Source of the DNA: Candidatus Saliniplasma sp.
Lineage (GTDB): Archaea > Thermoplasmatota > Thermoplasmata > Halarchaeoplasmatales > Halarchaeoplasmataceae
DNA length: 64,000 bases
Assembly: GCA_046497075.1 (NCBI GenBank)
Contig: JAWOGF010000038.1
Location: 1,306-65,305 of the forward strand
Reading direction: 5' to 3'
Below are positions 43,499 through 64,000 of this stretch, one piece after another (the first letter of the stretch is position 1; each line of letters begins with the position of its first letter). The notes beneath the pieces are model-generated. The model had not been told where the DNA came from. It searched no databases and saw only the letters and a list, made by a program, of their open reading frames with translations. The position numbers and the translations under genes are program-made.

Positions 43499-43624
43499 AT
43501 AGTTTATCAACATAACGACCAGCCGGGCTGTGGAAATGATCTAAGTGTGAAAAGCGAAATACTTGAGGGTTCAAAAATTCACATATAAAATAAACTTTGA
43601 AACCATTCAACAGGTTGGCTCTTT

Positions 43625-44572: not shown

Positions 44573-44617
44573 GATTAATCGTTTTAAATCGAACTTGCAT
44601 ATTTAGCCCATTCAAAT

Positions 44618-45100
44618 TTAATTGTTTGACAGCTTTTCTCCCGGGCTAGAGCATTGATCAGATTCCATACAACTTTCGATAGCATCTTCCATTTCCTGCC
44701 TATACCCTTCGTCAAAACTTACCCAGTACTCATCACCGATGAAAGTAGTTGGAACACTGGCTATGGGCACATCGTAGATTTCGACCAGTTTTTGAAACAC
44801 CTTTCTGTCTTCGGTATTGCCATAGATATCAAACTTCTTCACTTCGATATCGTCATCTTCTTCCAATTCATCAATATATTGCCGTTGTTTCTCACAGATC
44901 GGGCAATCCTCGTCCCAAAACCAATATACCGTCACTTTATCTGGATCGTCTTCTATACCTGTTCCAATATCTTCATCATCCTCGGGTACACTAGACTGCA
45001 GGGTATAGATAACAGATCCGATGATAACGATCACGATTCCCAGTGCTAGGACATTTTTGATGATCTTTTTATCCATTATACTTGATTCACTTTTCTTCAT
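44618..45100 (-). CDS. Membrane-anchored thioredoxin-fold protein (CPIC active site)
   Basis: N-terminal TM anchor; WFWDEDCPICEKQ CxxC motif; acidic extracytoplasmic domain. Confidence 0.6.
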   Translation of the reverse strand: MKKSESSIMDKKIIKNVLALGIVIVIIGSVIYTLQSSVPEDDEDIGTGIEDDPDKVTVYWFWDEDCPICEKQRQYIDELEEDDDIEVKKFDIYGNTEDRKVFQKLVEIYDVPIASVPTTFIGDEYWVSFDEGYRQEMEDAIESCMESDQCSSPGEKLSNN

Positions 45101-47576
45101 CTACAGACTTCTCTCCCCTCTTAGTTTTCATCCAAGTTACAATCATGATCACGGTTAAGATAATGGCTATCAGTATCACAAACGTCGTTATATTGTTTTG
45201 CGTAGGTGAATCTTCGTCAGCGTCGGTCGCTTCGGTCAGGGGATAATCGTCTACAAACCCTTCTCCTCTATATGGGGTGACCCAGATATCTCCATCAGCG
45301 ACTTTTCCAGCATCCGGATATTCCTTATCGTAATCGGACCAGTAATTACCCCCGATGGGGTAACCATTATCCCATTGGTTATCGCCGTGATCTCTAGCCT
45401 GAACTAGATTTTTTATAAAGTTATTATGGTAAATAGTGTTGTCATTACTTCGAAGATCTAGTGATATACCTGGATTATTGTTGTAAAGGGTATTATTATT
45501 GATGAGATTTGATCGAGATGATCGGAGAGATATCCCCGCGTTGATATTAGAATTGGCTGTATTCTTTCCTAGGGCATTATTTTTGGAACTTGAAAGATGT
45601 ATTCCATGTTCTCCGTTCCTAGATGCAGTATTTTCCTTAATTATATTGTTATCTGAGTTTTTGAGTGAGATACCGCACCAATCGTTCCCTGAGACGTTGT
45701 TAGATGTTATGGTGTTTTTCGACGAAAAGCCGAGTTGTACACCGACCGATCCTTGACTAAGGTCTTGATCTTTTACTTTTATATTCTCACACCCGACCAA
45801 GATTATCTGACCCGCATCTGATGGAACACTTTGATTATGATTATCCGTCCAATAGTAGACCGGCCTGCCGTTAACTGTATTGGTTGTACTTATCGAATGT
45901 GAATCCCAGTACTCTAACAGGTCGCCCCAGATAATGATCCCGTTTTCGGTCATCTCATTTTCTTCTAAAGAGTGTTCTTTGGAGTCTGAAAATATTACCC
46001 CGCCCCAGTCGTTGTTAGATAGTGAGTTTTTTTCGACCGCATTTCCAGTTGAGTTGGAGAATGAGACCCCGTAGCCGAAGTTGTTTGTTATGGAGTTTTC
46101 TGCAAGATGATTTTTATTTGACTTTGAAAGATGTATCCCGTGGTACTCATTCTCCGTGATGATGTTATTTGAGACGGTGTTTTCATTTGACCCTTTAACG
46201 TGGATACCGTCTTCTAGGTTTTGTGAGACGGTGTTATCAATTACTGAGTTTTGGTTTGAGGACTCTAGTCGGATCCCATGACGGCTGTTCGAGTTGATAT
46301 CATTATCTAAGATATCGTTGTTTTGGGAATTGTATAGATAGATACCGTAAAGGCCGTTTGTTAATTCATTCCTTTCGATATCGTTGTTGGATGAAAACCC
46401 CATTAGGATCCCTGCAGAGCTACTACTGACTTCGAGATCTTCGACGACCATGTCTTTACAGTCGGCCAATATCACTTGTCCGGCATCAGATGGGACCGTA
46501 CCTCCTCTTTCGCTGTGGTAATAGTAAATGGGTTTTCCCTCAACAGAGTTATCCGTAGAGATCGTGTGGGTGTCCCAATGAGCTAATTTTTCACCTGTTA
46601 TGAACACTCCATTCCCTTCAAAGATATTATCTTCGATCAGCTGATTTTTAGAGTCTGATATGTAAACGCCATATTCATTATGTAAGAGTTCGTTGCTTGT
46701 AACATTATTTTCTTCTATCGAGCCCGCAAAACTGATACCATAATCGTTTTTTTCTGCAGTATTTTCTTCAACCAAATTAGAGTTCGATTCATAAAGCTGT
46801 ATACCTACAGTGTTGTTAAACCCGGTATTATATTTGATGATATTATCATAAGAATTTATTAGGCTTATACCGAAATCGTTTTTCTCTGCATAGTTATCAA
46901 CAACGTTGTTATCGCTACTGGAATCGTAAAGGTAGATGCCCCGGTAATTGTCCAAAAGTTGATTTTCTTCGATGTCGTTGTTGAAGGAGTTTTCGATACG
47001 GATCGAGTAGACACTGTTGTTCTGTAAGATATTGTTGGAAATCTCGGTGTTCTTCGAGTCTTTGAGCCAGATCCCCTTTTTTTCATGACGTTCCAGTATA
47101 TTATCAGTAATCATTCCATTCTCGACGTTGTTCAGGTATAGACCGGTGTTTGAAAAGTATGGCTTTTCCATTCCTGACGCGTTATATATATAACAATCTC
47201 TTACGACAAAGTGGTCTGACACATTGCCTATGTATATGCCATAGCCGTATCCCCCTGCATCTATATCATATCCTTCGATCATCCAGGGGTCGTCAATATA
47301 TCCACTCCCTGCCCAATCCTGTTCTACAAAATCCTGGTCGTTATCTATCCGTATAGGCCCATGTTCGATGTAATCATCAGATGTAAGTTGTTCTACATGG
47401 GTAGAAAGATGAACTTTTTCTTCGACCCCGTCATCATGATCGATAGCCATACCCGAAATAAGTAAGATAAGACATACGGTAGCCCATACTATTATCTTAT
47501 TTTTAATCTTCACCATATATTGCACACCATACCCCGATAAAAAATTTCGGTATATATAGTTTATGTATCTATACAA
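45087..47576 (-). CDS. Large secreted right-handed parallel beta-helix repeat protein (NosD/CASH-like; two repeat blocks) with a C-terminal TM anchor
   Basis: Signal peptide; more than 25 iterations of NNxIxxNxxxGIxLxxSxxN 22-aa units; C-terminal TFVILIAIILTVIMIVTW anchor. Confidence 0.8.
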   Translation of the reverse strand: MYRYINYIYRNFLSGYGVQYMVKIKNKIIVWATVCLILLISGMAIDHDDGVEEKVHLSTHVEQLTSDDYIEHGPIRIDNDQDFVEQDWAGSGYIDDPWMIEGYDIDAGGYGYGIYIGNVSDHFVVRDCYIYNASGMEKPYFSNTGLYLNNVENGMITDNILERHEKKGIWLKDSKNTEISNNILQNNSVYSIRIENSFNNDIEENQLLDNYRGIYLYDSSSDNNVVDNYAEKNDFGISLINSYDNIIKYNTGFNNTVGIQLYESNSNLVEENTAEKNDYGISFAGSIEENNVTSNELLHNEYGVYISDSKNQLIEDNIFEGNGVFITGEKLAHWDTHTISTDNSVEGKPIYYYHSERGGTVPSDAGQVILADCKDMVVEDLEVSSSSAGILMGFSSNNDIERNELTNGLYGIYLYNSQNNDILDNDINSNSRHGIRLESSNQNSVIDNTVSQNLEDGIHVKGSNENTVSNNIITENEYHGIHLSKSNKNHLAENSITNNFGYGVSFSNSTGNAVEKNSLSNNDWGGVIFSDSKEHSLEENEMTENGIIIWGDLLEYWDSHSISTTNTVNGRPVYYWTDNHNQSVPSDAGQIILVGCENIKVKDQDLSQGSVGVQLGFSSKNTITSNNVSGNDWCGISLKNSDNNIIKENTASRNGEHGIHLSSSKNNALGKNTANSNINAGISLRSSRSNLINNNTLYNNNPGISLDLRSNDNTIYHNNFIKNLVQARDHGDNQWDNGYPIGGNYWSDYDKEYPDAGKVADGDIWVTPYRGEGFVDDYPLTEATDADEDSPTQNNITTFVILIAIILTVIMIVTWMKTKRGEKSVDEEK

Positions 47577-47680
47577 CCATATATATTTAAAGAAAAGACT
47601 CTAGACACCTAAGAAATCCTAAGAAATTTTTCTAGAAAAATATATATACTATCCTTAATTTACACCGCTCGGGATTGAAC

Positions 47681-48166
47681 ATGGAAAAAGGGACAATAAA
47701 GGTGACAACCTGCATAGTGATTTCCTTGATCATGATAGCTGGATTTTCTATCATGTTTGAAAGCACTGCAGAGGGTCCGGAAGGATATGAGGCTGAAGGA
47801 GAGGACGACATCTACACTACATTCGTCGAGAAAGATGCTGTAGAGGAGGAAGAGCCCACTTCGTACAACCTTACGGAAGGAGAGTTAGAAGAGATCGAGG
47901 AACTGATGGTAGAAGCATTGGGATTAGAAGACGGTCCGAAGCTCGAGTCGGAGATCGACCTCATGGAATGGTTCGCCGAGATGGACGAGGATGACTGGAG
48001 CGATCTGACCGAGTACACGAGCGAGACAGATGATGACACGGGATGCGGATCAGCTGGGTACGATGGCAGAGACGGACCGAGAGAGCGAGGGGAAGAAGAG
48101 CTGATGAGTCCCCCGCCGATGCAACCCAACGGCGGCGGTACATACGAGCCTGGCACCACACTCTGA
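47681..48166 (+). CDS. Membrane-anchored hyper-acidic protein ending in the EELMSPPPMQPNGGG leader-like motif (founder gene of the Cys-rich-peptide cassette)
   Basis: ATG at 47681 (the track's 47675 is a TTG). One N-terminal TM helix, then a domain that is more than 35% Asp/Glu. The C-terminus carries repeat copy R1 and stops 8 codons later. Confidence 0.55.
   Translation: MEKGTIKVTTCIVISLIMIAGFSIMFESTAEGPEGYEAEGEDDIYTTFVEKDAVEEEEPTSYNLTEGELEEIEELMVEALGLEDGPKLESEIDLMEWFAEMDEDDWSDLTEYTSETDDDTGCGSAGYDGRDGPRERGEEELMSPPPMQPNGGGTYEPGTTL
48095..48139. repeat. Repeat R1 (~45 bp) encoding EELMSPPPMQPNGGG
   Basis: gaagagctgatgagtcccccgccgatgcaacccaacggcggcggt. Near-identical copies occur at 48214..48252 and 48909..48957. 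Confidence 0.85.
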
Positions 48167-48211
48167 TGCCTGGCTGCGTAATACTCGTCAAGTTCTGCAG
48201 AAGATGTCTCA

Positions 48212-48586
48212 ATGGTGAGTTCGCCGCCGATGCAACCCAACGGCGGCGGTGGCTGGAGTGACACTTGTCCATACGGAGTATATTTAACTTACGATGAATG
48301 TTTACAAAATAATGGATGGGATGAGGAATATTGTTCTTGTGTCTGTGATTACAGCGGCAGTTGTGGCGGCCTATGTGAATTAACTGATGAATATTGGGAT
48401 TGTGTAGATGAACAAACAAGCCATCCTGTTTATTATGCGAGTATAATTATAGGTTGTGGAGTTGGTTGTATAGTGACAGATCCTGGATGGCCGTTATGTG
48501 TTAAAGGATGCATAATAGGTGCTTCTGTTGCACCGGTAGCCGTGTACACAGGCTGTTTATTTGTTGAAGGTGCTTATGAATGTTAA
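48212..48586 (+). CDS. Cysteine-rich peptide A precursor. It has an MVSSPPMQPNGGGG leader-like N-terminus and a 110-aa core with 17 Cys and a hydrophobic Gly/Cys-rich C-terminal half.
   Basis: Carries repeat R2 at its 5' end. The core begins WSDTCPYG...DEC, paralogous to peptide B. It is in the same frame as the upstream gene, separated from it by two in-frame stops. Confidence 0.55.
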   Translation: MVSSPPMQPNGGGGWSDTCPYGVYLTYDECLQNNGWDEEYCSCVCDYSGSCGGLCELTDEYWDCVDEQTSHPVYYASIIIGCGVGCIVTDPGWPLCVKGCIIGASVAPVAVYTGCLFVEGAYEC

Positions 48587-48792
48587 AACTTGAACGACAT
48601 ATACAAAAACTAATAGTGTCTTTTATAATATCCATACACCATATTAGCTTGTATATTCTAGTTAGAATTGATGTATTATCTATGCCTAGAAACTGGAGAT
48701 ATACCTTTCTACCTTTATATGTTGGTTTTACTGTAATCGCCATTATTACGTTCTATCAGGGAATCTCAGGATTCAATCAAAAAGACATATAA
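48580..48792 (+). CDS. 2-TM microprotein (70 aa), putative cognate immunity/partner protein of peptide A
   Basis: Its ATG overlaps the peptide A stop (gaATGTTAAaa), indicating translational coupling. It has two hydrophobic helices. Confidence 0.5.
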   Translation: MLKLERHIQKLIVSFIISIHHISLYILVRIDVLSMPRNWRYTFLPLYVGFTVIAIITFYQGISGFNQKDI

Positions 48793-48818
48793 TGATCGGA
48801 TAACGAGGTGAGAACGAA

Positions 48819-49166
48819 GTGTCCAGTGTATTTAGTATGAGCAGATACACATACGTGCAGAAAACTCCGACGGATGACAAATGCATGCAAGATGAGTTAG
48901 ATGAGATCGAAGAGCTGATGAGTTCGCCACCGATGCAACCCAACGGCGGCGGTGGTGGTAGTGTAGGCGACACTTGCCCTGATGAATGGAGTTACGATAG
49001 CTGGGATGAGTGTAGGTGGTACCATGATGTTGATACATGTGCAGACCTTTGTTTTGGTGAGTATGAAGAAGCTGGTATGAGTTGTGAGGCCAAAGTAGGC
49101 CTTCTTTGTGCAGATGTACGTATGCGCAAAACGAAGTATGTGGATAATATAGGATGTGTGGTGTGA
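48819..49166 (+). CDS. Cysteine-rich peptide B precursor (GTG start). It has a 47-aa acidic leader ending DELDEIEELMSSPPMQPNGGGGG and a 68-aa core with 9 Cys.
   Basis: GAGGTGA RBS 7 nt upstream. Carries repeat R3. The core SVGDTCPDEWSYDSWDECRWYHDVDTC aligns with peptide A (DTCP...DEC...C). Confidence 0.55.
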   Translation: MSSVFSMSRYTYVQKTPTDDKCMQDELDEIEELMSSPPMQPNGGGGGSVGDTCPDEWSYDSWDECRWYHDVDTCADLCFGEYEEAGMSCEAKVGLLCADVRMRKTKYVDNIGCVV

Positions 49167-49167
49167 T

Positions 49168-49362
49168 ATGAAGATATCAAAAAGAACAAAGTTTCTTGCG
49201 ATATTTATATTTGGTTGGAATATAGGTATTTTTATTGCCTCATCGATATCCCACCGAGATTTACATTTTCCACTATCAATGATGATTGGTGGAACCATTG
49301 GCGCTGTGATAATGTATATATTAGGTGTAGATAAAATGATAAAAAAACATAAAAATGATTGA
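49168..49362 (+). CDS. 2-TM microprotein (64 aa), putative immunity/partner protein of peptide B
   Basis: Its ATG lies 1 nt after the peptide B TGA. Basic N-terminus plus two TM helices (FLAIFIFGWNIGIFIASSI, LSMMIGGTIGAVIMYILGV). Confidence 0.5.
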   Translation: MKISKRTKFLAIFIFGWNIGIFIASSISHRDLHFPLSMMIGGTIGAVIMYILGVDKMIKKHKND

Positions 49363-49399
49363 TATACAGATTTTAAAAACAATGATATAAAAATAATAT

Positions 49400-49960
49400 A
49401 AATGAAGCATCTGATAGAAAGTGAAGTCGTTAATACCGTGCAGAACGAATATGATGATGAGAACATGCTGTAAGGTCTGATGATAAAACTTACAGCTACG
49501 ACAAAATAAGAAGAACATGCTCACCGATCATCCTATAAGCATCGAAGTGAACGGTACAAAATATTAGTACTTATACAATTGCCAAGGCAGCGTTACTGAA
49601 CTGATCAACTCAGATGAAGAAGTAGTCAATCAATACAGATACACCCCATTCGGCAGTCCCAGATTGAAAGTAGAAAGCGTGTACAACCCATATCAGTACA
49701 CCGGAAGAAGATTGGACGAGGAATCCTGTCAGTACTACCACCGAGCTAGGATGTACTCGCCTACGGAGAACGAGTTCATCAGCAGCGATTTTTCGGGATT
49801 CTTATGGACTCCCAGTAGATCCCATGGGATTAGAAGAGGGACCGAACATGTACACTTACGCAGGGAACGATCTGGCGAATCACAGGGATCCAAGCGGGTG
49901 TATGTATGTTTCCTTGAACTTGAGCTGTTCTGTCAAATCTCCGATATCACTAAATTCTTG
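49400..49960 (+). pseudogene. Decayed RHS/YD-repeat C-terminal core fragment (frameshifted, multiple stops)
   Basis: Frame 1 gives NPYQYTGRRLDEESCQYYHRARMYSPTENEFISSD (compare YRYTGRxxDxETGLYYYRARYYDPxxGRFISxD). After a frameshift it continues SYGLPVDPMGLEEGPNMYTYAGNDLANHRDPSG, the DPxGL...NxYxYxxNxPxxxxDPxG Rhs core end. Upstream are YD-like remnants (VVNTVQNEYDDENML) interrupted by stops. There is no N-terminal Rhs body. Confidence 0.55.
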
Positions 49961-50014
49961 AAAGTTGACAGACTCCATAAAACGAAAACATAAACTATAA
50001 TTGTTATTTGTATT

Positions 50015-50734
50015 ATGGAGGTGAGCATGTCTGAAACAGACGTATCACCATCTTTGATGATATTGGAAGTGATCGGCGTTACCATCATGGCCTTGCTCCT
50101 ATCTTTGGCGATGGGTGTCGTTTTTATCGTGTCATTGGTTGTGTTGGGATATGGAGTCGATTCAACTTTCGCACTCGGCGGCGCTACAGTTTTTGGTCAA
50201 GTGGGATTCCTGATAGTAGCATATATCTACATACGTCGTCGGAAAGTGACTGTCCCATTTGAGGCACCATCTCGATCAGATCTGTTTCACATCGGAGGAG
50301 GGATAGTTATCGCGCTGGCTACTGCAATTGGATTTTCCCAGTTGCTGTTATACTTCGATCTTATGCCGGAATCCGTTCTCGAAGAGATCGCTGAGACCAG
50401 TCCGATATTTTTGATAGTTCTAGCGATACTGTCTGTAGTACTAATTGCCCCGGCTGAGGAGCTTTTATTCAGAGGGGCCATCCAAGGCAAACTCCGTGAA
50501 CATTTTACTCCAATCCCTGCGATCACAACTGCAAGCCTTTTATTTGGTTCCCTCCATTTTCTCAACTACGGTGGAGATATCCTTCCAATAATACTGTCGA
50601 CATTACTTATCGTCGTCATCGGTGGGATAATGGGTTGGTTGTATGAACGTACGAACAACATCGTGGTTCCGATCCTGGTTCACGGGATATACAATTTCGT
50701 ATTACTGGTGCCCAACTATTTTGAGATGGTATAG
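50015..50734 (+). CDS. CPBP-family intramembrane metalloprotease (CAAX protease / Abi self-immunity family)
   Basis: EELLFRG, FGSLHF and HGIYN motifs in the correct order; 6-7 TM helices. Confidence 0.8.
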   Translation: MEVSMSETDVSPSLMILEVIGVTIMALLLSLAMGVVFIVSLVVLGYGVDSTFALGGATVFGQVGFLIVAYIYIRRRKVTVPFEAPSRSDLFHIGGGIVIALATAIGFSQLLLYFDLMPESVLEEIAETSPIFLIVLAILSVVLIAPAEELLFRGAIQGKLREHFTPIPAITTASLLFGSLHFLNYGGDILPIILSTLLIVVIGGIMGWLYERTNNIVVPILVHGIYNFVLLVPNYFEMV

Positions 50735-50834
50735 GTGTAAATACAGAAAGGAATTTACAGATAAGTATTCAGGTGGTTCACAAAATCAATAAATATACGA
50801 TAATCATCTTTCGTTCTAGAGGTTAGAGAGGAAT

Positions 50835-52310
50835 ATGGATGGAAAAACCCTTGCAGATTTTGCTGTAGAGTATGGTCAATCTTTAGAGGCTGATTATGTA
50901 GAAGCTAGGTTCGTAACCTCCATGAACGAGAACTATTTTGCTAGGAATGGTAAGTTTTTAAGTATTCAGGAAAAACCCATCAGAGGGTTAGGTATAAGGG
51001 TTCTTGTGGACGGATGTGTCGGTTTCGGATCTGTGGATGTTTTGACCAAAGATGAGGTCAAAGATAGGATCGAATCGATCTCTAAGATGGCAGGACTTAG
51101 TAAAAGAGAAATACCTATCGAATTTTCAAAAGAGAAAACAGTTCAAGACAATTGGATCGCCCCGGTTGAAGTTCCTTTCGAGGATATATCTAGGGAAGAG
51201 AAACAAGATTATGTAAAACGTTTAGATAAAAGGGTCAAAGAAGCAGGTTCTAAAAAATTTTCGTTCAGGAACAGGATAAAGAACAGGATATTCTTCCTCC
51301 ACACAAACTCCATGGATAAGTACATAGTCAACTCGGAGGGTTCTAAAATAAAATCCGACGAATCGTTCATATCACTATTTACTATACTTAACGCGAAGGT
51401 CAAAGATTCTAGTGAGCAGAGGATGTTAGGTTTAGGTGGAAGTGCGGGATGGGAATGGCTCAAAGAGGAAAACGTGCATGACTTAGTAGGCAGGGAAAGT
51501 GAAAAACTTGTCAAAACCGTAGAAAATGCCCAGAATATCCCTTTCAACGAAGATATTGACGTGGTAGTGGGACCCGAAGTCTCCGGGATAATGGCACATG
51601 AGAATGTAGGACATCCCAGTGAGGGCGATAGGATAATCGGTCGAGAAGAGGCACAGGCGGGAGGATCATTTTACGATGAATTTTTTGGTATCGATAACAA
51701 AGATCCAGTAGATCTAAACCAGTCTGAGATCAAATTGGGAAGCGAAGATGTGTCAGTCATAGACGATCCTACTATCGATCAAAGTCCGGGTTTCTATATC
51801 TACGACGACGAATGCGTCGAAGCCCGAAGTAGATACCTGATCAAGAACGGGCGGTTGAACGAACTCCTTCTTAACCGTGAGTTCGCTTCTAGATTCGGTA
51901 CCCGTTCCAACGGTGCTGCTCGTTCCTCCTCATATAGTAGAGAACCCATTCCAAGGATGTCGAACACTTTCTTTGAACCCGGAGACCACACTAAAGAAGA
52001 GCTAGTAGAAGATATCGAAAAGGGTCTGCTTATCGAGAGTTTCACCGAGTGGAACATAGATGATAGACGGTACCACAGTAAATACGTAGGATTGGAAGCA
52101 TATCTAATACGGAACGGAGAGGTCACTGACCAGATGGTCAAGCGCCCCGCACTAGAACTTACAACTCCAGCACTCCTAAAAAGCATAGAGGGTGTTTCAA
52201 AAGACTACGAATCCAGGATGAACTTCTGCGGTAAGAGCGATCCCATGCAGCCGGTGAGCGTTTCCACTGGGGGACCTTATCTGAGGATCAGAAACGTGAG
52301 GGTGGGGTGA
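50835..52310 (+). CDS. tldD: TldD-family metalloprotease (peptidase U62)
   Basis: HENVGHPSEGD (HExxxH...E) zinc site; ~490 aa. Confidence 0.8.
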   Translation: MDGKTLADFAVEYGQSLEADYVEARFVTSMNENYFARNGKFLSIQEKPIRGLGIRVLVDGCVGFGSVDVLTKDEVKDRIESISKMAGLSKREIPIEFSKEKTVQDNWIAPVEVPFEDISREEKQDYVKRLDKRVKEAGSKKFSFRNRIKNRIFFLHTNSMDKYIVNSEGSKIKSDESFISLFTILNAKVKDSSEQRMLGLGGSAGWEWLKEENVHDLVGRESEKLVKTVENAQNIPFNEDIDVVVGPEVSGIMAHENVGHPSEGDRIIGREEAQAGGSFYDEFFGIDNKDPVDLNQSEIKLGSEDVSVIDDPTIDQSPGFYIYDDECVEARSRYLIKNGRLNELLLNREFASRFGTRSNGAARSSSYSREPIPRMSNTFFEPGDHTKEELVEDIEKGLLIESFTEWNIDDRRYHSKYVGLEAYLIRNGEVTDQMVKRPALELTTPALLKSIEGVSKDYESRMNFCGKSDPMQPVSVSTGGPYLRIRNVRVG

Positions 52311-53770
52311 TAGTTATGGTAGGAGAAATTTTTGATGAGGAATTGTTGCAGGTCGGAGTTGAAACCGCTTTGAAGGCGGGAGCCGATGAAGCCATAGTTA
52401 AACTGGTAGATCAGAAAAAACATCAGATCAGATTTTCAAATTCTTCTATCGATGTGAATAAAGAATGGAGCAGTTACTACATAGATGTATTATTCACTAA
52501 AAAACCACGCCTTTCTCTAACGGGAAAGATCAACACACTCACAATCCAGGACCCGGATCCAGAGAAAATAAGAAAGAACGTTCCAAAACACGTCAGTCTT
52601 CTGGATCATTTACCGAAGAACAAGCTATACTGGGGTATGGACGATCGATCTTATAGCTCTTATCGTTCTTTGAATATATATGATGATAGGGTAGAGGGTT
52701 TTCATGAAAAAGGGCCAGATCTAGTAAGGAAGACTATCGATTCAGCTCTACAGAGTGGAGCTGACGGTGTTTCAGGTGTACTGCACTCAGCAGCTACCAA
52801 GACCGGTGTTCTAACCAGTTATGGGAACGGAGGAACGTACAGGTCTTCTTTTTGTCGAGGAACTGTCAGGGCATTTCATCGAGAGGGCGGTAGTGGACAA
52901 GGTTTGATAGTAGCTAGAGATCTTTCTGGCATAGATGAAAGGTTTCGAAAAGGTGGTGGGAAAGCAGGGAGATTGGCCAAGAAGAGTGCAGGGGCTGAAG
53001 AGGGAAAACCTGGGACTTATGATGTGATAATGGCTCCGACCGTAGGTGCTAATATCTTTGGTAATCTTCTCAATGGGACCAATCCTATAATGATGATAGC
53101 CGGTATGAGCCCTCTTAAAGGTAAGATGAACGACAAGATCGGCCCTGAAAATTTGACTGTTATCGAAGACCCCATTTTAGATGAAGGACTGAACAGCAGA
53201 CCATTCGACGATGAGGGCACTCCTTCAGAAAAAACTGAACTCATCAGAGATGGAGAACTCACCGGATTGATCCATAACACTTCTACAGCTAAATTATGGA
53301 AGTTTATAAGTATGCTAAAACTCAGATTCTGGAGAAGGCCAAAGACTACATCGAACTCAAGCTTAACACAACTTGGGATGACCGGTACAGAAGAGGATCC
53401 TAGAACACTTATGCCGACTCCTTCAAACTATCGATTCACCCCTGGATCATACAGCTTGGATGAACTCATCTCGACCTCTTCCAGACCGACGATTTTACTT
53501 ACGTCCAACTGGTATACCAGGTTCACCAATATGAGCGAGGGAGAGTTCTCTACTGTTCCTAGAGACGCTGTATTTTTAGTTCAAAATGGAGAGATAAAGA
53601 AACCGATAAGGAATCTTCGGTTGAAAGGCAACCTTTTAGAGATGTTAAAAAATATAGAGGGGATAGGGAAGGGATCGAAGCAGATCCGATGGTGGGAAGT
53701 CAACACACCCACTTTCATCCCACATATCAAGATAAAGCACTGTAAGTTCACCAAGGCTAAAGCAAGATAG
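52307..53770 (+). CDS. pmbA: PmbA/TldE-family protein (TldD partner)
   Basis: U62-family fold without HExxxH; 4-bp overlap with tldD. Confidence 0.75.
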   Translation: MIVMVGEIFDEELLQVGVETALKAGADEAIVKLVDQKKHQIRFSNSSIDVNKEWSSYYIDVLFTKKPRLSLTGKINTLTIQDPDPEKIRKNVPKHVSLLDHLPKNKLYWGMDDRSYSSYRSLNIYDDRVEGFHEKGPDLVRKTIDSALQSGADGVSGVLHSAATKTGVLTSYGNGGTYRSSFCRGTVRAFHREGGSGQGLIVARDLSGIDERFRKGGGKAGRLAKKSAGAEEGKPGTYDVIMAPTVGANIFGNLLNGTNPIMMIAGMSPLKGKMNDKIGPENLTVIEDPILDEGLNSRPFDDEGTPSEKTELIRDGELTGLIHNTSTAKLWKFISMLKLRFWRRPKTTSNSSLTQLGMTGTEEDPRTLMPTPSNYRFTPGSYSLDELISTSSRPTILLTSNWYTRFTNMSEGEFSTVPRDAVFLVQNGEIKKPIRNLRLKGNLLEMLKNIEGIGKGSKQIRWWEVNTPTFIPHIKIKHCKFTKAKAR

Positions 53771-53805
53771 ATGATATTTTAGGACGAGGTGAGGCATTTA
53801 TTCTA

Positions 53806-56754
53806 TCAATCGAATCTCAACGCTTCCGCCGGTGAGACCTTACTAGCCTTATGGGCACTCGGTATAGCGGTTAGCAGCATAGCGACATATGCTATCACAC
53901 CTATCGTCAAGATCGAAATCCACGGTATGGAGAATTCCCAGCCCATAGGTTTGAACCCGTCGTACCACAGCAGCCATCCGATAGCTATACCCAAGCTAGA
54001 ACCCAACACTATACCAACAATAGTTATGAAAGAGTTCTCTATCAAGAAGGCGTACCTGATCATCTTCCTTTTGAACCCGATAGCTCTCATCATACCGATC
54101 TCCAACCGCCGTTCGTGTACCGCCCTTAAACTAATAATACCCAAACCAGCGATCCCAACAACTAGACCTAGCCCCATATAACCTGAAAACAGGTCGAAGA
54201 ACATGTAGGTAGCACTCATAGCATCTCTGATGATCGTTTCGATGACTACGGTCCTGAACCCGTACTGGATGAACTCTCTGTTAAGATCACGGCCAAGCTC
54301 ATCGGCATCTACGTTCTCTTCAACGCTGAAGAAAAATAGAGAGTTAGAAGTGATATTGAATTCATTTCTTACAGTTCCTTTGGACATGAAATACCCGCTG
54401 ATCGCATTTTGGTCCATGAAGCCAACGACTTTTTTTTCACGTACTTCATCTTCATGGTCGATGAACTTAACAGTCGATCCCAACTCGATAGTCTCGCCTC
54501 CCGGCGGTCCGTATTGATCAGAGGGGGCGTTTGTTATGACCAGCGAGGAATTCGACAAAACAGCATCCCATACTTCATCGTTGGACTCATATTCATCGAG
54601 ATAGTCAGAGAACCCAAATGTATTATTGCCAACGAAATTATCATCTATACCTATAGCGGATTTCCTACCTATCTCACCATCATTATCTCTCATACGTATA
54701 TTACCGCGGTAAGCCGAGTCGATATGGTTAAAATCCTCAATATCTAAGTTTTCATTGTTAATTATCTCGCTGTGCATGTCATCGATATATTTATCCTGAC
54801 CTGTCATACCCATGATCTCATACCCGCCGGATTCTTCTTCGATCATCCTATCTATGTTAGTATCGAAGATACCGACGATCATCCCCATGACTGTTATTGC
54901 GAAGATGATCAGAGCGAAGATGAAGATAGTCATACCGGTTCTGAACTTCTCTTTTAATGGGTGGGAAATGGCTGATAGAACTACCGCTTTGAAGCCAGTA
55001 TCCGACCTGCACAACCTTTCCATCCCACCTGTTAATAGATGACCGTTCAGCATTACTATGAGTACTCCTGCGGTTACCATGAATAGACCAGAAAGTATGA
55101 ACATCTCTAATCCAGAGGTGTATCCCTCGAAGAATTCTAATGTGTCCAGTGGAACGAGCCACCAGACCAGCAAGAACACCCCTACACCAGTATAAGCGGC
55201 TCTATCTCCCACCCATCTTCTAGCGACCGTTCCGATACCGATTATTATGAGAGAAATGCCAGTTACGGGTAACCAAAACTGATCCACACCTGTTCCCATT
55301 ATCGTTAAAAGAACTCCAAGGATCAACCCCGCGATGGCCATGTAAAAGACCTTTTTGTTTTTCTTAGATACGGGTGGTTCAGGTATATCTCTGATAGCTC
55401 TAACGATATTCAATTTAGATATCCGGGTAACTGAAAAGAATATCGTGCCCATTGTCAACAAAAATCCGGCAGCGAAGGCCAATATCATGCTTTCTGGGGT
55501 GAAAGTAAAATATCCAAGGAGCGATACATCCCCGCCGAATGTAGCGAATATATCTTCGAGTAAGAAGAATATAACATAAGTTAAACCAGCACCGACAAAA
55601 ACACCTACGAAGGAGGCCGCACCAGCATATATCATACCTTCGTAAGAGAATACCCTACGAAGGTGTCCTCTTTTCATACCTATCGCCCTGCTCATACCCA
55701 TCTCGGATTTCCTCTCCTCCCCCAGCATAACGAATATGTTAACCGCTAAGATGATACCGGCGATTATAGAGAAGGTACCAAAAATTAAGAAAATATCAGT
55801 GAACTGCGATATGTTATCTTTAAAATCCTGCAGTACCTGGTTCTTGTTCCCTTTAGCCTCTAATACGTTATACTCGGGATCTTCCTGCAGAAGATTCTCG
55901 ATATCCTCAAATATCTGATCGCTGTATTCAATACCGCTTTCTACACCACCTATAGAAGTGACTCTGATGTAGTTTACTTGATTTGGAAGGCTGAAGGCCG
56001 TTTGAGCATCAGATAAAGACATGATGATCTTATTGCTTCCACGGAAAGCCGCTCTTCCCTCGTTATCGATCACCTCTTTTACTGTATAGGTCATATCGTT
56101 TACTCCATTACCCCCCTCCTCCTGAGATTCTACTGTAAACAATAGTAACTCATCACCTTTCTCAGCCTCTAATTCTTCTGCTAATCGTGTATCTATAAAT
56201 ATCTCTTTTTCTCCAAGCTCAGGTTCGAAACTCTCACCATCTTTGTAAAAACGTCCAAAAGCCTCACCGTCATCAAGATCCATCCCGATAACACGGGTAC
56301 TCGGTTGAGACAGTCTTGCATCTGGATTTAATACCGGTAGAGAGCCGTGAACTTCACCACTCACTTCATCTACATTATCGATATCAGATATATCTGAACT
56401 GAGATTTTTATAAGTGCTGTGCTGTATAGGAACATAATTTCCCTCTACTGTTGTATTGTATACGGTTACGTCCGTCTGCTGCCACTCGCTGTAGATCTCA
56501 TCCTCAACCATATTGTCCATGGTATCTCCGACACCGAAAGAAGATGAAATGATAGCAGTGGCAATCATCAATCCTAAAATCACTATGACTGTATTGGTCT
56601 TCCTGCGGAATATGTTCCTACATCCGATCCTAAATAGAATTTTATGTCTATAAGCATCGAAAAGGACTATACCAACAACTACTGCGATGATACCCAGTAG
56701 AAGGACGATCATGCCTTCACCCCTCCTTAATCTGGTCCCGCTGGACAACTCCAC
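53806..56754 (-). CDS. ABC transporter permease with two FtsX-like modules (MacB/FtsX family, 982 aa, large extracytoplasmic domains)
   Basis: Two repeats of a TM-large loop-3TM architecture; located downstream of a MacB/LolD-type ATPase with a 38-bp overlap. Confidence 0.8.
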   Translation of the reverse strand: MELSSGTRLRRGEGMIVLLLGIIAVVVGIVLFDAYRHKILFRIGCRNIFRRKTNTVIVILGLMIATAIISSSFGVGDTMDNMVEDEIYSEWQQTDVTVYNTTVEGNYVPIQHSTYKNLSSDISDIDNVDEVSGEVHGSLPVLNPDARLSQPSTRVIGMDLDDGEAFGRFYKDGESFEPELGEKEIFIDTRLAEELEAEKGDELLLFTVESQEEGGNGVNDMTYTVKEVIDNEGRAAFRGSNKIIMSLSDAQTAFSLPNQVNYIRVTSIGGVESGIEYSDQIFEDIENLLQEDPEYNVLEAKGNKNQVLQDFKDNISQFTDIFLIFGTFSIIAGIILAVNIFVMLGEERKSEMGMSRAIGMKRGHLRRVFSYEGMIYAGAASFVGVFVGAGLTYVIFFLLEDIFATFGGDVSLLGYFTFTPESMILAFAAGFLLTMGTIFFSVTRISKLNIVRAIRDIPEPPVSKKNKKVFYMAIAGLILGVLLTIMGTGVDQFWLPVTGISLIIIGIGTVARRWVGDRAAYTGVGVFLLVWWLVPLDTLEFFEGYTSGLEMFILSGLFMVTAGVLIVMLNGHLLTGGMERLCRSDTGFKAVVLSAISHPLKEKFRTGMTIFIFALIIFAITVMGMIVGIFDTNIDRMIEEESGGYEIMGMTGQDKYIDDMHSEIINNENLDIEDFNHIDSAYRGNIRMRDNDGEIGRKSAIGIDDNFVGNNTFGFSDYLDEYESNDEVWDAVLSNSSLVITNAPSDQYGPPGGETIELGSTVKFIDHEDEVREKKVVGFMDQNAISGYFMSKGTVRNEFNITSNSLFFFSVEENVDADELGRDLNREFIQYGFRTVVIETIIRDAMSATYMFFDLFSGYMGLGLVVGIAGLGIISLRAVHERRLEIGMMRAIGFKRKMIRYAFLIENSFITIVGIVLGSSLGIAIGWLLWYDGFKPMGWEFSIPWISILTIGVIAYVAMLLTAIPSAHKASKVSPAEALRFD

Positions 56755-57421
56755 TTTCCATGTGAAGTACCCTTTCTGCCCTATCAGCTACTCTGTTCTC
56801 ATGGGTCACTAGGACCATAGTATGTCCGTTTTTATCGTTCAAGTCGCAGAGTATGTCCATGATCTTATCCGAAGTTTCAGTGTCGAGGTCACCGGTGGGT
56901 TCATCGGCCCAGATCATATCAGGCTCGTTGACTATGGCTCTAGCGATGGTTACACGCTGTCTTTCCCCTCCTGATAATGCTGAAGGTCTGTGAGTATATC
57001 TATGCCCTAAACCCACCATATCCAGGGCTTTTTCCGCTTTTTCTCTAGCACCTTTTGATTTTCCCGCTAGAAGTAAAGGCAGCTCGACATTTTCCACAGC
57101 TGAAAGTACTGGTAATAAATTATAGAATTGGAAGACAAAGCCCATGTTCATAGCCCTCATCTCGGTCTTTTCATTATCAGATAGTGAACTGAGATCCTTT
57201 CCTTTCAACCATACTTTGCCTTTGGATATATCATCAAGACCGGATAAGCAGTTCAACAATGTAGTCTTCCCACATCCAGAAGGCCCCATAATAGCGACCA
57301 TCTCACCTTTTTTGATAGAAAGGTCGACACCACGTAAAGCGTGGACCTTCACTTTTCCTTCATAGAACTTGTGTAATTTCTTTGATCTTATCATTCCGGT
57401 CTTCATAGTCTCCGCTTCCAT
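56717..57421 (-). CDS. ABC transporter ATP-binding protein (MacB/LolD-type)
   Basis: GPSGCGKTT, LSGGERQRVTIARA, IWADEPTGDLD. Confidence 0.9.
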   Translation of the reverse strand: MEAETMKTGMIRSKKLHKFYEGKVKVHALRGVDLSIKKGEMVAIMGPSGCGKTTLLNCLSGLDDISKGKVWLKGKDLSSLSDNEKTEMRAMNMGFVFQFYNLLPVLSAVENVELPLLLAGKSKGAREKAEKALDMVGLGHRYTHRPSALSGGERQRVTIARAIVNEPDMIWADEPTGDLDTETSDKIMDILCDLNDKNGHTMVLVTHENRVADRAERVLHMESGVVQRDQIKEG

Positions 57422-57444
57422 AACGCCGGTAAGATTATGACCTT

Positions 57445-57452
57445 TATAAATA
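57445..57452 (-). promoter_or_regulatory. TATA-like box TTTATAAA about 25 nt upstream of the ABC ATPase start. Just upstream is a direct repeat ATTGTTACA-N10-ATTGTTACA (57505..57532).
   Basis: Read from the sequence; the spacing fits archaeal TATA/BRE promoters. Confidence 0.35.
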
Positions 57453-57570
57453 TATTTGTTTTAAGTTTTAGTAAATAGAACAGATCTACATATATTATAT
57501 ATTAAATTGTTACAAGCCTTTTAGATTGTTACATCCATCTGCCAGATCTATCAATCTAAATTTCAGGATT

Positions 57571-60500
57571 TCAGGAGTTTTCGGCCTTTTTCAATTCTAT
57601 ATCGAACCTCGTTCCACCGAGTTTAGAATCCTTGACTGTAACCTTACCTCCATATCTATTAAGCAGAAGTTCAACTAGGTACAGACCGAGTCCGGTACCC
57701 CGTTCCATATCAGAAGTGTACCCCTTACTGAATATATCGTCTTTTTTCTCGTCGGGTATACCTATACCATCGTCTTCGATCTTACAAACCACCCGATCAT
57801 CCGATTCTTCACATGTTATCTTTATCAAACTTCCCTCAGAAAATTTGATAGAGTTCTCTATGATGTTCGAGAAGACCTCTTTTAATAGTGAACCACCTTG
57901 CACATCACTGATATCATCAGGGATGTTTACGGTGAGCTCAAAACCTTTCTCTTCAGATACGTCTTTTAGATCGTTAACAGTTTCGTTTATCATTGGTCGA
58001 ATATCCAATTTTTTAATATCCTCCTCTTTTGTCCGCCTCAACACTCTGACTTTATCGATAAGTTCTATACTCCCGATTATCCCTTTTTTTGCTCTCTGCA
58101 GGTAATCTTCGGCCTTTTCAGGTAGATCAAAATCCGCTTCTAGAAGATATATATATCCCTGGATGATCTGGATCTTGTTACCCACGTCATGTCTGAGAAG
58201 AGTGTGTAGAAACTGTTCCCTCTCGCTCATCTCTACCCTTTTAAGAGCTTCTGTAATGTGATTGATCAACAATTCAGCCAATTCGAGATCTTCTTCATCG
58301 AATTGATTTGGTTCTTTGGATACTGCCTGAAATATCCCACCTTTGCCGATCGGTACACTTATGGCCGATCTATATTCATCTTTAACTGGTTTTGAATCAC
58401 CATTTTGCTTTAAATCATCTACTATGTAGGAACTCTGTTCCCGGTAAGTCTTTTTATCCAAACCCCCATCTTCTATGGGTCTGTCCAGGGAACCATTTAC
58501 TGGCACATTTGAGGAGACGGCTTTTGTTACAAATTTGTCACCTTCTACAGCATCGAAAACACAGATATCGAAGTCCAATATATTTTCAGCAGCTTCGATA
58601 CCCAGTGAGTATACCTCATCTTTTGTTTGACACAACTCGATTCTAGCTGCCACATCGTGTAGTTTTTTTATCCTGTTTTTCTTTTCCTGTACTATTTTTT
58701 CTCTTTTGAGCCTATCTAGGGCTTCTTTAAGATGGGATATGAATAATTTAGCTATCTCTAGATCAGATTCGTCAAAATATCCCACTGTTTTAGATAGTGC
58801 CTGGAAAACGCCATAATCTCCGATTGGGATCGTTATACCAGATCTGTATTTTTTTGATTTAGGTTCAACACTCTCAAAATCCCGTATATCCTCTATCAGA
58901 AACGCTTTTTTCTCGCTGAAAGATAGACCTACGACTCCCTTGTTGATATCCACAGTATCACCGATCTCTTCTTGAATATTAGATGTGCTCGCTTTAACGA
59001 TCCCTTTTCCATCCTCCTCTATCAAAATACCAGCCACATCGAATTTGAATATTTCGTCGACAGCGGAGATAGCTATCTGAAACACATCCTCTTCAGTTTT
59101 GCAGTTCTGGAGTTTCGAAGAGAGGTCGTATAGGGCTTTTATATCTTTTTGACTTTCTTTCAACTCATCCTTGATATTTCTCCGCTGGGTGATATCTCTG
59201 ATGTTGCACTGAACAACTTTATCGCCACCTGCTTCGTATGTGTTGCTAACAAATTCTACGGGTACTTCCTCACCTCTGTTAGTTTTTAAAGGCAGATCTT
59301 CGTAACGGATATAACCTTCATCTACGAGTTCTTGGAATCTCTTCTTATTTTCAGCGATGCCTTTGAAGGTTCCGATCTCCCAGAGTTTTTTTCCCTTGAG
59401 CTCGTCTATAGAGTAACCTAAATGCTCTAGGATGTAGGGATTAGCGTCTTTGATCTTACCGGAGTTCGCATCGATTATGAGCATACCGTCCTGTGCTGTC
59501 TCGAAAAGACGCCTGTATCTTTCTTCACTTTCCTCTATCCTTTTTTCAGCCATTATCTTTTCCCTAGCGAAGGCTAGATCGCTGCTGACCTCTTTCAGTA
59601 ATTCGATCTCTTCTTCGGTAACTTCTTGCTCTCCTGGTAAACAGGCGGAAAGAATACCGTTCACTTTTCCGTTTTTGACCATAGGAACGATTATAGACTT
59701 ATGTTCTTCATCATATTCACAGTACTCACAGTTTTCACACTGACTATTTACATCATCTATCACCTTTGTCTCACGAGTTTGGATTGCTTCTCGAACACAG
59801 GTGGGATTTTCTTCATCTGCTTCTCCATAGAATGTTTCATTCCATCTATCTCTTGTGTGATCCCCGCAGTGAGCTACAGGTACTATCTTATCATCTTCTC
59901 GCTTTATAGCTATAGATACGTCGAGGTACTGCCTAATATCCAACATTGTTTCACATGTTTTCTGGAGAAGTTCTGTGAGATCATCCTCCTGAACTATCAA
60001 TTGATTGATCTGACGGATGGCGCTCCTCAATGAATACATCTCTCTAGCGAGTTCTTCGGCTTTCTTTTTCTCTGTGATATCCGACGTTATACCGAATATT
60101 TCCTGGACTTTTCCGTCATCATCTTTTAAAGAGAATATTGCATTACGGAGGACCCTTTTCTCACCACCTTTCGTTTTGATCGTGACTTTCAACCACCTAT
60201 CCTTTATATCATCGGGATCTACCCCTTTCATTTTTTTCTTACACTCTTCGGTAAGAAAATCCCTTGAATTCTTTCCTATCATTTCTTCAGGACTATATCC
60301 GTGGATATCCGCAAACGATCGGTTTACAAAAGTGAACTTTCCAGATGGTTCTCGAATATAAAAACCCTCTTCGGATTTTTCGAATATATGGGCAAGAAGT
60401 TTGTTTTTCCTTCTCAAAGAAATCCTAGTCCTATGGTGCTCCGTTTCTTGTAAGATCGCATCGGATAACACCCCGTATTGACTCCCCGGATCGCCACCTT

Positions 60501-60819
60501 TCTGGATGTACCTATTAGCGCCTAGATTCAGCGCTTTTATAGCCACTTCCTCCCTGCCCCTACCTGTGAACATTATGAACGGGATATCACTGTTTCTTTC
60601 TTTTCTAATTTCCTCTAAGAACTCTAAGCCATCGATGTCGGGCATCTGATAATCGGAAATTATCACGTCAAAATCATTCTCATCTAGTAGGTCTAATGCT
60701 TGTGAAGCAGACAGAGATGTGGTTATATCGAATCTTTTTTCCTCCCTCTCTAGAAATATCTCACCCTGGTCAAGGATATCGGATTCATCGTCTACGAACA
60801 AAATTCTGATGTTTTTCAT
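57571..60819 (-). CDS. Hybrid sensor histidine kinase (N-terminal receiver, PAS, multiple GAF domains, HisKA, HATPase_c)
   Basis: REC motif DDESDIL...DVIISDYQMPDIDGLEF, LRHDVGNKIQ H-box, and GTGLGLYLV G2 box. Confidence 0.85.
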   Translation of the reverse strand: MKNIRILFVDDESDILDQGEIFLEREEKRFDITTSLSASQALDLLDENDFDVIISDYQMPDIDGLEFLEEIRKERNSDIPFIMFTGRGREEVAIKALNLGANRYIQKGGDPGSQYGVLSDAILQETEHHRTRISLRRKNKLLAHIFEKSEEGFYIREPSGKFTFVNRSFADIHGYSPEEMIGKNSRDFLTEECKKKMKGVDPDDIKDRWLKVTIKTKGGEKRVLRNAIFSLKDDDGKVQEIFGITSDITEKKKAEELAREMYSLRSAIRQINQLIVQEDDLTELLQKTCETMLDIRQYLDVSIAIKREDDKIVPVAHCGDHTRDRWNETFYGEADEENPTCVREAIQTRETKVIDDVNSQCENCEYCEYDEEHKSIIVPMVKNGKVNGILSACLPGEQEVTEEEIELLKEVSSDLAFAREKIMAEKRIEESEERYRRLFETAQDGMLIIDANSGKIKDANPYILEHLGYSIDELKGKKLWEIGTFKGIAENKKRFQELVDEGYIRYEDLPLKTNRGEEVPVEFVSNTYEAGGDKVVQCNIRDITQRRNIKDELKESQKDIKALYDLSSKLQNCKTEEDVFQIAISAVDEIFKFDVAGILIEEDGKGIVKASTSNIQEEIGDTVDINKGVVGLSFSEKKAFLIEDIRDFESVEPKSKKYRSGITIPIGDYGVFQALSKTVGYFDESDLEIAKLFISHLKEALDRLKREKIVQEKKNRIKKLHDVAARIELCQTKDEVYSLGIEAAENILDFDICVFDAVEGDKFVTKAVSSNVPVNGSLDRPIEDGGLDKKTYREQSSYIVDDLKQNGDSKPVKDEYRSAISVPIGKGGIFQAVSKEPNQFDEEDLELAELLINHITEALKRVEMSEREQFLHTLLRHDVGNKIQIIQGYIYLLEADFDLPEKAEDYLQRAKKGIIGSIELIDKVRVLRRTKEEDIKKLDIRPMINETVNDLKDVSEEKGFELTVNIPDDISDVQGGSLLKEVFSNIIENSIKFSEGSLIKITCEESDDRVVCKIEDDGIGIPDEKKDDIFSKGYTSDMERGTGLGLYLVELLLNRYGGKVTVKDSKLGGTRFDIELKKAENS

Positions 60820-61530: not shown

Positions 61531-61563
61531 AACCACGTTATGATCATCAAGGTGATCTCCTCC

Positions 61564-61899: not shown

Positions 61900-61916
61900 C
61901 TGATAGGTGAATAAGA

Positions 61917-62726: not shown

Positions 62727-62795
62727 AAAATATAACACAGAAATTTTATATCTTATGATGATACCTATTTTTAAGTAGATCAAGGTCGGGATAAT

Positions 62796-63977: not shown

Positions 63978-64000
63978 GATCATCTCTTCCATTATCTTAC

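Follow-up and report, generated by a model that had tools for sequence, protein, structure and literature searches.

Does a group of genes encoding an intramembrane protease, a peptidase pair, an exporter and a sensor kinase form a single functional island with the Cys-rich peptide cassette beside it, or are these genes simply neighbors? The question is raised by a 64-kb stretch (the window) of a metagenome-assembled genome of Candidatus Saliniplasma, a Thermoplasmatota lineage known from soda-saline lakes (PMC11332174). The original prediction for this DNA had treated the region from 47.6 to 60.8 kb as one archaeocin-like island serving peptide maturation, immunity and export. Family assignment with Pfam and NCBIfam profiles confirms most of its inventory: genes for a CPBP protease, TldD and PmbA, a MacB/FtsX-type ATP-binding cassette (ABC) transporter and a REC-PAS-GAF kinase are present, as are the divergent thioredoxin and beta-helix genes. 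The peptide cassette is real, with a 48-nt junction that occurs three times in the window, and the decayed Rhs remnant is real and belongs to the toxin locus. The reported lack of an ABC transporter with a C39 peptidase domain holds, by profile annotation, for the whole 64 kb. The caveat that each component is individually common was also justified, as these families are widespread without the peptides. The single island holds only in part: the toxin/immunity locus and a collinear divergent block to its left stand, and a part in it for the CPBP, TldD/PmbA, pump and kinase genes is not supported.

We assign a probability of about 0.75 to the reading that the region is a mosaic and not one island, comprising a polymorphic toxin/immunity array (47.6-50.0 kb), a possible accessory operon to the left and chance neighbors to the right. 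The real unit is the stretch of 47.6-50.0 kb, possibly extending left to 43.6 kb. This reading is carried by the modular architecture of the peptides, the co-inheritance of their tails with downstream transmembrane (TM) proteins, exchange at a common linker, the sharing of modules with Rhs cores, and the lack of linkage to the right-hand genes. Modular architecture, tail/TM co-inheritance and linker exchange are defining properties of polymorphic toxin loci, whose hallmark is an array of toxin-immunity cassettes that recombine onto a constant 5' gene body (PMC3482391).

The peptide family is tiny; word-indexed searches returned about 15 proteins, and an exhaustive profile search yielded 30 representatives among 1.84 billion. 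All family contigs recovered derive from soda-lake or unnamed metagenome samples, and the viral contigs searched contain no relatives of the peptides. A second family locus is present in the same genome, on a 42.9-kb contig (locus tags R6W73_02955-02975). Eleven other array contigs of 1-7 kb each were compared (L065-L074 and L082); there the family forms arrays with small multi-TM genes placed behind the individual peptide genes, and the visible flanks encode a DDAH/ADI-type enzyme and BioY (L066, L073). Alignment of the homologues reveals a conserved N-terminal region and linker joined to unrelated tails. The small carrier, exemplified by the pepA gene of the window, starts with a segment resembling a signal peptide and continues through about 100 aa of acidic sequence to the linker; intact proteins of this type, P0138 (291 aa) and P0134 (271 aa), display the full architecture. 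Six distant members (P0141, P0143, P0146, P0147, P0149 and P0150) are instead the C-terminal ends of Rhs cores (..YYYRARMYSP..GRF.S.DP.GM.DGPNMY..RDPSG), followed by a P..NG(G/A)GG linker and the same Cys-rich domain and hydrophobic tail. Judged by this architecture, the peptide domain is a C-terminal module of toxin type with two alternative carriers, an Rhs core or the small carrier. Neither the toxin domain nor the small carrier matches a Pfam or NCBIfam family; the toxin domain is new and narrowly distributed.

A catalog of 22 modules on 11 sequences, 20 of which have a complete tail, links these variable ends to their downstream genes. The complete modules possess 0-14 Cys residues (7-14 apart from the pepA stub) and mostly a hydrophobic, Gly/Ala-rich end, and 14 of the 20 directly precede a protein with 2-7 predicted TM segments. 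Modules that share a tail share the downstream TM protein despite differing upstream parts, as in the pairs 15/18, 6/20 and 0/14, and the same pairing recurs between module 17 and the partial first open reading frame (ORF) of L066. These patterns suggest that the downstream TM proteins are likely immunity proteins. Larger proteins of 220-310 aa, some multi-TM and some tetratricopeptide repeat-like, replace the small 2-TM proteins in several arrays (L065 1378-2211, L073 915-1595, L074 656-2872); in L074 several TM genes stand in a row after one toxin gene and may be stacked immunity genes.

The cassettes also differ in how much of the carrier they retain. Their 5' homology is of arbitrary length, from none up to the whole region after the signal peptide, and their N-terminal parts (0 to approximately 160 aa) are truncations of one constant region. 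Contigs L083 and L085 represent two strains. They share 99.8% identity over 6 kb and are unrelated from the SPP codons of the second-cassette linker onward, making the point of cassette exchange between strains visible at single-codon resolution. The original prediction had taken the Gly run for a Gly-Gly leader whose removal, if it takes place, would call for a non-canonical protease. Because the same linker and domain also follow Rhs cores, and with N-terminal parts ranging from nothing to most of the carrier, we interpret the Gly run as a linker and recombination site, and not as a double-glycine leader; a leader protease is therefore not required by the data.

These findings also bear on a different view, in which the peptides are precursors of bacteriocins or of ribosomally synthesized and post-translationally modified peptides, with long acidic Gly-Gly leaders and a transporter encoded elsewhere, for example by the MsbA-type half-transporter genes at 10.0-13.6 kb. 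Most cassette copies do lack a signal peptide and consist of an acidic N-terminal part running to GGGG and then a Cys-rich core, and ABC exporters are indeed present in the window. However, the supposed leaders are 5' truncations of arbitrary length, the pattern expected of orphan cassettes, full-length members bear a Sec-type signal peptide, and the same domain forms the C-terminal extension of Rhs cores. Moreover, no C39 peptidase domain is found in the window, and the sole radical S-adenosylmethionine (SAM) gene there (7669-8622) is some 40 kb away from the cassette. We regard precursors of this type as highly unlikely.

The array of the window itself (Table 1) is best understood against its intact relatives. 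The 48-nt junction encodes ..EELMSPPMQPNGGGG.., and pepA stops 7-8 residues beyond it. The genes pepA and pepB share a reading frame and are separated only by the 111 nt between two junction copies, so that excision of these 111 nt would leave an uninterrupted ORF for a 266-aa protein having both a signal peptide and a toxin domain. A 76-nt query across this inter-junction stretch (48140-48215) found no homologue in any fetched locus, and the interruption may reflect recombination caught midway, a switch or an error of assembly. The tail of pepB is homologous to that of the Rhs-fused protein P0146, and the 70-aa 2-TM protein that follows pepB is weakly similar (27%, E 1e-5) to a 61-aa protein following P0146 in L082. 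In pepC, part of the constant region has been deleted between two EELM repeats, and the hydrophobic tail present in its intact L073 counterpart is missing; the subsequent 68-aa 2-TM protein (tm68) is 94% identical to the product of the gene that follows the intact toxin gene in L073. The Rhs remnant, when joined across its one frameshift, matches the TIGR03696 Rhs_assc_core profile (E 3.7e-18, 65.8 bits, cutoff 32.5) and differs little from the N-terminal part of P0146, a protein that runs on into the same toxin domain. By this comparison, the remnant is the stretch of 5' homology left over from an orphan cassette of the Rhs type that has lost its toxin part. A full-length YD-repeat shell is absent, as no YD-repeat ORF exists in the 64 kb and only this frameshifted fragment of about 130 aa is found. 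Both small TM genes are intact, and the array thus resembles a store of cassettes in partial decay whose immunity genes have been kept. A stretch of 32 nt in the pepA constant region (47909-47940, ..ALGLEDGPK..) is 81% identical to one in the Rhs remnant (49815-49846, ..DPMGLEEGPN..); the small carrier may derive from the end of an Rhs core, or the likeness may be due to chance.

The gene order at the right end of the array is secure. The interval 49082-53835, which covers part of pepC, tm68, the Rhs remnant, CPBP and TldD and extends into PmbA, was recovered at 99.95-100% identity in three independent Logan assemblies, so mis-assembly does not account for the order tm68, Rhs remnant, CPBP, TldD. 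The three Logan contigs carry an identical CPBP gene and are re-assemblies of the same strain, so they add no new gene context.

Table 1. Features of the toxin locus and its neighbors, with the point of divergence between two strains of a second species (window coordinates unless a contig is named)
Feature	Coordinates	Strand	Basis or remark
Protein with ~8 TM segments and two Cys (NPC and LPCTAG motifs)	43625..44572	-	possible accessory thiol-disulfide membrane component
Membrane-anchored thioredoxin-fold protein, CPIC motif	44618..45100	-	Pfam Thioredoxin_2, Glutaredoxin
NosD/parallel beta-helix surface protein, TM segments at both ends	45087..47576	-	Pfam NosD 5.4e-89; TIGR03804 repeats
pepA, 'main' toxin gene body	47675..48166	+	signal-peptide-like N-terminus, acidic constant region, junction; no toxin domain
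Junction repeat copy 1 (..LMSPPPMQPNGGG..)	48102..48149	+	repeat search
Junction repeat copy 2	48213..48260	+	111 nt (37 codons) after copy 1, frame kept
Junction repeat copy 3	48916..48963	+	repeat search
pepB, orphan toxin cassette starting at junction	48212..48586	+	14-Cys domain, hydrophobic Gly-rich tail
70-aa 2-TM protein, candidate cognate immunity for pepB	48580..48792	+	
pepC, decayed toxin cassette	48819..49166	+	intact counterpart is L073 2-517
68-aa 2-TM protein (tm68), candidate immunity for pepC-type toxin	49156..49362	+	
Rhs C-terminal core remnant, frameshifted (..YRYTPFG..YYHRARMYSP..DPMGLEEGPNMY..RDPSG)	49568..49958	+	
CPBP/Rce1-like intramembrane protease (PF02517)	50015..50734 (annotated start 50027)	+	E 2.6e-21
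TldD	50835-52310	+	HENVGH motif
PmbA/TldE	52307-53770	+	no HExxxH; 4-nt overlap with tldD
Duplicated FtsX + MacB_PCD permease	53806-56754	-	
LolD/MacB-type ATPase	56717-57421	-	
Soluble REC-PAS-GAF-PAS histidine kinase, 1082 aa	57571-60819	-	
Strain divergence point at linker	L083 10995-11030 vs L085 5980-6015		cassette swap at codon resolution

The integrated archaeocin island of the original prediction, in which TldD/PmbA or CPBP trims a Gly-Gly leader, CPBP confers immunity, the MacB-like pump exports the product and the kinase regulates it, depends on the genes at 50.0-60.8 kb. In this genome all of them lie within 12 kb of the cassette. The CPBP gene begins about 55 nt past the end of the Rhs remnant and its product retains the catalytic motifs EExxxR, FxxxH and HxxxN; in Firmicutes, CPBP/Abi proteins confer immunity to bacteriocins (PMC8692603), and E. 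coli TldD/E removes the leader of microcin B17 (PMC5810440). Gene neighborhoods, the comparison that had been proposed together with the island, were examined for TldD relatives across 185,579 genomes, one per species, giving 64 loci with flanks of up to 10 kb; these tests address linkage in the neighborhood, not genome-wide co-occurrence, a measure of little value for a pair as widespread as TldD/E. PmbA directly follows TldD in 20/20 loci at the level of Thermoplasmata (60-84% identity), and the pair persists, without the cassette, in most of the 64 archaeal loci. The peptide motifs, searched in all reading frames, are absent from 64/64 loci. An adjacent CPBP gene occurs in 0/20 of the Thermoplasmata loci, the one CPBP gene seen (in L012) being 8.7 kb away on the other strand, and the FtsX/ABC pair is near tldD in L001 only.

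L001, the nearest relative (TldD 84% identical), delimits the right block at nucleotide resolution. Its sequence, which covers 1.2 kb upstream and about 10 kb downstream of tldD, is collinear with window positions 50773-57394 and 61561-64000 only; homology begins 39 nt past the CPBP stop codon and 62 nt upstream of tldD. L001 thus keeps TldD, PmbA, FtsX and the ABC gene and lacks CPBP, the cassette and the large kinase. A 127-aa ORF lies upstream of tldD where the window has CPBP, and a 200-aa PAS-domain protein (7916-8518) occupies the slot of the 1082-aa kinase, which indicates that the position upstream of the ABC genes holds variable sensor proteins. Orthologues of CPBP are numerous (235 aa, 50-70% identity), occurring in Saliniplasma, Natronoplasma and even haloarchaea. 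The four orthologue loci fetched (65-68% identity) have unrelated neighbors, such as genes for ferritin, a CARDB protein, an ECF transporter and cyanophycin synthetase, and carry no TldD gene, FtsX permease or cassette motif. Conversely, CPBP, TldD/PmbA, FtsX-ABC, kinase and C39 transporter genes are all absent from the eleven other array contigs.

The assignments that had tied these genes to the peptides fail accordingly. CPBP has no conserved adjacency to the family, and the array carries TM immunity candidates of its own; CPBP is an adjacent gene, probably outside the toxin unit. Unlike the full-length toxin, which has a signal peptide, TldD, PmbA and the kinase possess neither such a peptide nor a TM segment. 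The cytoplasmic location of TldD/PmbA and the presence of tldD/E in almost all archaeal genomes (PMC5810440) fit a housekeeping role, and the pair, fixed in related loci without the cassette, is a cytoplasmic housekeeping metalloprotease pair outside the toxin unit. The FtsX/ABC genes, found beside tldD-pmbA in L001 without a cassette motif and missing from the array contigs, likewise lie outside it, as does the kinase. The neighborhood comparison came out as housekeeping synteny without the cassette, the outcome named beforehand as speaking against the island, which is therefore largely refuted on its own terms. With the Gly run also found behind self-cleaving Rhs cores, we consider an integrated archaeocin island most improbable. 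The co-localization is real in this genome; it is not beyond chance and is not conserved elsewhere.

A different picture emerges on the left. P0138 is encoded on three contigs (L083-L085) of another soda-lake Thermoplasmata species, and window positions 43622-47815 are collinear with L083 5294-9377, the outer flanks being unrelated on both sides. The order in L083-L085 is a thioredoxin/2-Cys fusion gene (-), a beta-helix gene (811 aa, -), and then, divergently, the toxin gene, a TM protein gene, an orphan cassette and a second TM protein gene; this array is accompanied by no CPBP, TldD/E, FtsX-ABC or kinase gene. Identity between the window and L083 is 71% for the 2-Cys membrane protein, 59% for the thioredoxin and 58% for the beta-helix protein, whose gene in the window is also divergent from the main toxin gene. 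The left block is the only neighbor conserved with the toxin gene. The thioredoxin gene and the 3' end of the NosD-like gene share 14 nt, indicating that the two are probably in one operon. The 2-Cys membrane protein, with about eight TM segments, contains exactly two Cys residues, both within hydrophobic motifs; it had been labeled CcdA-like. That label finds no support in Pfam, NCBIfam or PDB, which gave no match even at E 10, and an AlphaFold model was unusable (predicted local distance difference test [pLDDT] 47); the label derives from the approximately eight TM segments, the two Cys residues and the gene fusion in L083. There, the thioredoxin domain and the 2-Cys multi-TM protein, encoded by separate genes in the window, form one 411-aa ORF (5297-6532), supporting a thiol-disulfide role for the membrane protein. 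A functional link of the left block to the toxins, suggested by a redox pair beside genes for secreted proteins with 7-14 Cys residues, is tentative, and we put it at somewhat less than even odds. A NosD-like match in L012 was rejected as an orthologue; it is a 1704-aa subtilisin and beta-helix protein.

Several other genes adjoin or recall these loci. To the left of the conserved block the window encodes a leucine-rich-repeat surface protein anchored by a C-terminal TM segment (41010-42560) and an HFX_2341/Csa3-like regulator (42716-43498), neither of which is kept in L083. An 897-aa PKD and GLUG-motif surface protein (21985-24678) has a paralogue at L083 12520-13719, directly downstream of the toxin array.

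The polymorphic toxin array can be given a mechanistic form. A pepA-type constant 5' body would provide the Sec-type signal peptide, the acidic region and the P..NGGGG linker, and would carry a variable C-terminal toxin in intact relatives. The toxin would comprise a small 7-14-Cys domain and a hydrophobic Gly/Ala-rich tail, and it probably acts on membranes, as suggested by its hydrophobic tail, by partners that are membrane proteins and by analogy with Rhs proteins, which can bear pore-forming C-terminal toxins (PMC10684867). The multi-TM protein encoded after each tail would give immunity. The copy with the signal peptide is presumably the expressed gene, its product being exported by Sec, and the downstream copies would be promoter-less orphan cassettes with varying 5' homology, one of them (the remnant) of the Rhs-core type. 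Homologous recombination at the linker would bring new toxin/immunity pairs into the expressed gene. The array in the window is partly decayed, pepA having no toxin, pepC no tail and the Rhs cassette a frameshift. An accessory role may fall to the divergent operon at 43.6-47.6 kb, whose products could fold or present disulfide-rich toxins outside the cell, with the thioredoxin and the 2-Cys membrane protein assisting disulfide formation, and the genes at 50.0-60.8 kb would be housekeeping or independently variable genes that came to lie next door by happenstance. A bolder version unites the beta-helix protein, the thioredoxin/2-Cys pair and the toxin gene that has the signal peptide, together with its array of cassettes, into an undescribed archaeal toxin module. 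In that version a dedicated extracytoplasmic thiol-disulfide system would fold the toxins, a new disulfide-rich and membrane-active family; the beta-helix protein would present or deliver them, the modules would be shared with Rhs carriers, and the 111-nt interruption would be a reversible on/off state or an intermediate of cassette exchange. We regard this fuller module as doubtful, at perhaps an outside chance.

The features of the array and of its surface-protein neighbor could also be accommodated by proteins that are not toxins at all. The peptides would then be membrane-anchored, variable surface or self-recognition proteins, with the tail as anchor, the small TM proteins as partners and the beta-helix protein in the complex. 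The tails are indeed predicted TM segments, neither toxicity nor an enzymatic domain is detectable from sequence, the conserved neighbor is a surface protein, and archaea possess hypervariable surface modules organized like polymorphic toxin systems (PMC8416519). Against this, the domain is fused to Rhs cores, which encapsulate and release toxins (PMC10684867); each tail is inherited strictly with one TM protein, as is typical of toxin-immunity pairs (PMC3482391); and in the window the TM genes are retained beside decayed cassettes. On balance we find an exclusively surface role unlikely.

Several points do weigh against a polymorphic toxin/immunity array. The Cys-rich domain of pepB has no Pfam match, and its AlphaFold model (pLDDT 46) is too poor for a fold search. 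The word immunity, as applied here, reflects position and co-inheritance. The pepA-pepB configuration lies outside the Logan coverage and might have arisen by collapse of the repeat during assembly. Array contigs of 1-7 kb place genes farther off beyond view, which limits the argument from their flanks. Finally, the link to the left block spans two species and could be inherited gene order and not function.

The remainder of the window offers no indication of a foreign island. Its composition shows no such signature, and tRNA genes are absent throughout. A promoter and terminator scan with bacterial models returned counts equal to those in shuffled sequence, an outcome to be expected with an archaeal host. 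The remaining genes serve ordinary metabolism and transport. Among them are two aspartate kinase/aspartate-semialdehyde dehydrogenase gene sets (25353-31770 and 35097-38594), one within a diaminopimelate/lysine operon and the other beside a Cys/Met pyridoxal phosphate enzyme gene. A cluster at 7669-13643 comprises the radical SAM gene, two methyltransferase genes and genes for two MsbA-type ABC half-transporters without a C39 domain; it is about 35 kb from the cassette, and no link to the cassette was seen.

The analysis identifies the locus as a polymorphic toxin/immunity array in an uncultured haloalkaliphilic Thermoplasmata lineage. To our knowledge, polymorphic toxin systems have not been reported previously from this archaeal lineage. 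Such systems are predicted in few archaeal lineages (PMC3482391) and have not been experimentally characterized there (PMC8416519). CPBP, TldD/E and a MacB-like pump come together here simply because their genes are adjacent, and setting this attractive combination aside removes a false lead. Should the left block serve the toxins, it would open a way to study the folding and deployment of disulfide-rich secreted toxins by archaea at high pH and salt.

Among known systems, halocin C8 of haloarchaea offers one point of comparison. This archaeocin is rich in Cys and is released from a precursor in which its immunity protein is encoded as well. The distribution of halocin C8 has been surveyed (10.64898/2026.07.27.741052). 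The locus described here resembles it in a predicted disulfide-rich secreted antimicrobial with a dedicated immunity function at the same locus, and differs in showing no homology (no Pfam match), in having a separate TM gene as the immunity candidate, and in its polymorphic cassette architecture. Class II bacteriocins and microcins are similar in that their products are small, Gly-rich, hydrophobic and secreted, with small membrane proteins encoded adjacently and a Gly-Gly before the variable part. Unlike double-glycine bacteriocin loci, the array has no C39 ABC transporter and its adjacent CPBP gene is not conserved with the family; its N-terminal parts are a truncated long constant region and not a leader of 15-25 aa, and the Gly run also occurs after Rhs cores.

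The Rhs toxin Tse5 of Pseudomonas aeruginosa provides a closer parallel, drawn by architecture and not by sequence. Its immunity protein, Tsi5, is a small membrane protein. The C-terminal fragment of Tse5 is pore-forming, and its cognate immunity gene is tsi5 (PMC10684867). As in Tse5, a hydrophobic and probably membrane-inserting C-terminal module is found behind an Rhs core. The toxins described here have an additional 7-14-Cys domain, and their delivery is presumably by Sec or another archaeal route and not by a type VI secretion system.

The closest likeness is to the polymorphic toxin systems with Rhs/YD-repeat carriers and orphan cassettes, represented in archaea by Methanosarcina acetivorans (Zhang et al. 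2012, PMC3482391). The loci have in common a constant 5' body, variable C-terminal modules, exchange at a junction, and toxin-immunity pairs arrayed downstream as orphan cassettes with partial 5' homology; some members, like Rhs toxins, carry a TIGR03696 core with its DPxG motif right before the toxin. Unlike the systems of Zhang et al., the toxin domain here lies outside Pfam and NCBIfam families, the host is a haloalkaliphilic member of the Thermoplasmata whose window holds no full-length Rhs gene, and most carriers are not Rhs proteins and instead consist of about 150 aa, with a signal peptide and an acidic stretch and no known domain. To these differences may be added the possible tie of the array to a module comprising a thioredoxin and a 2-Cys membrane protein.

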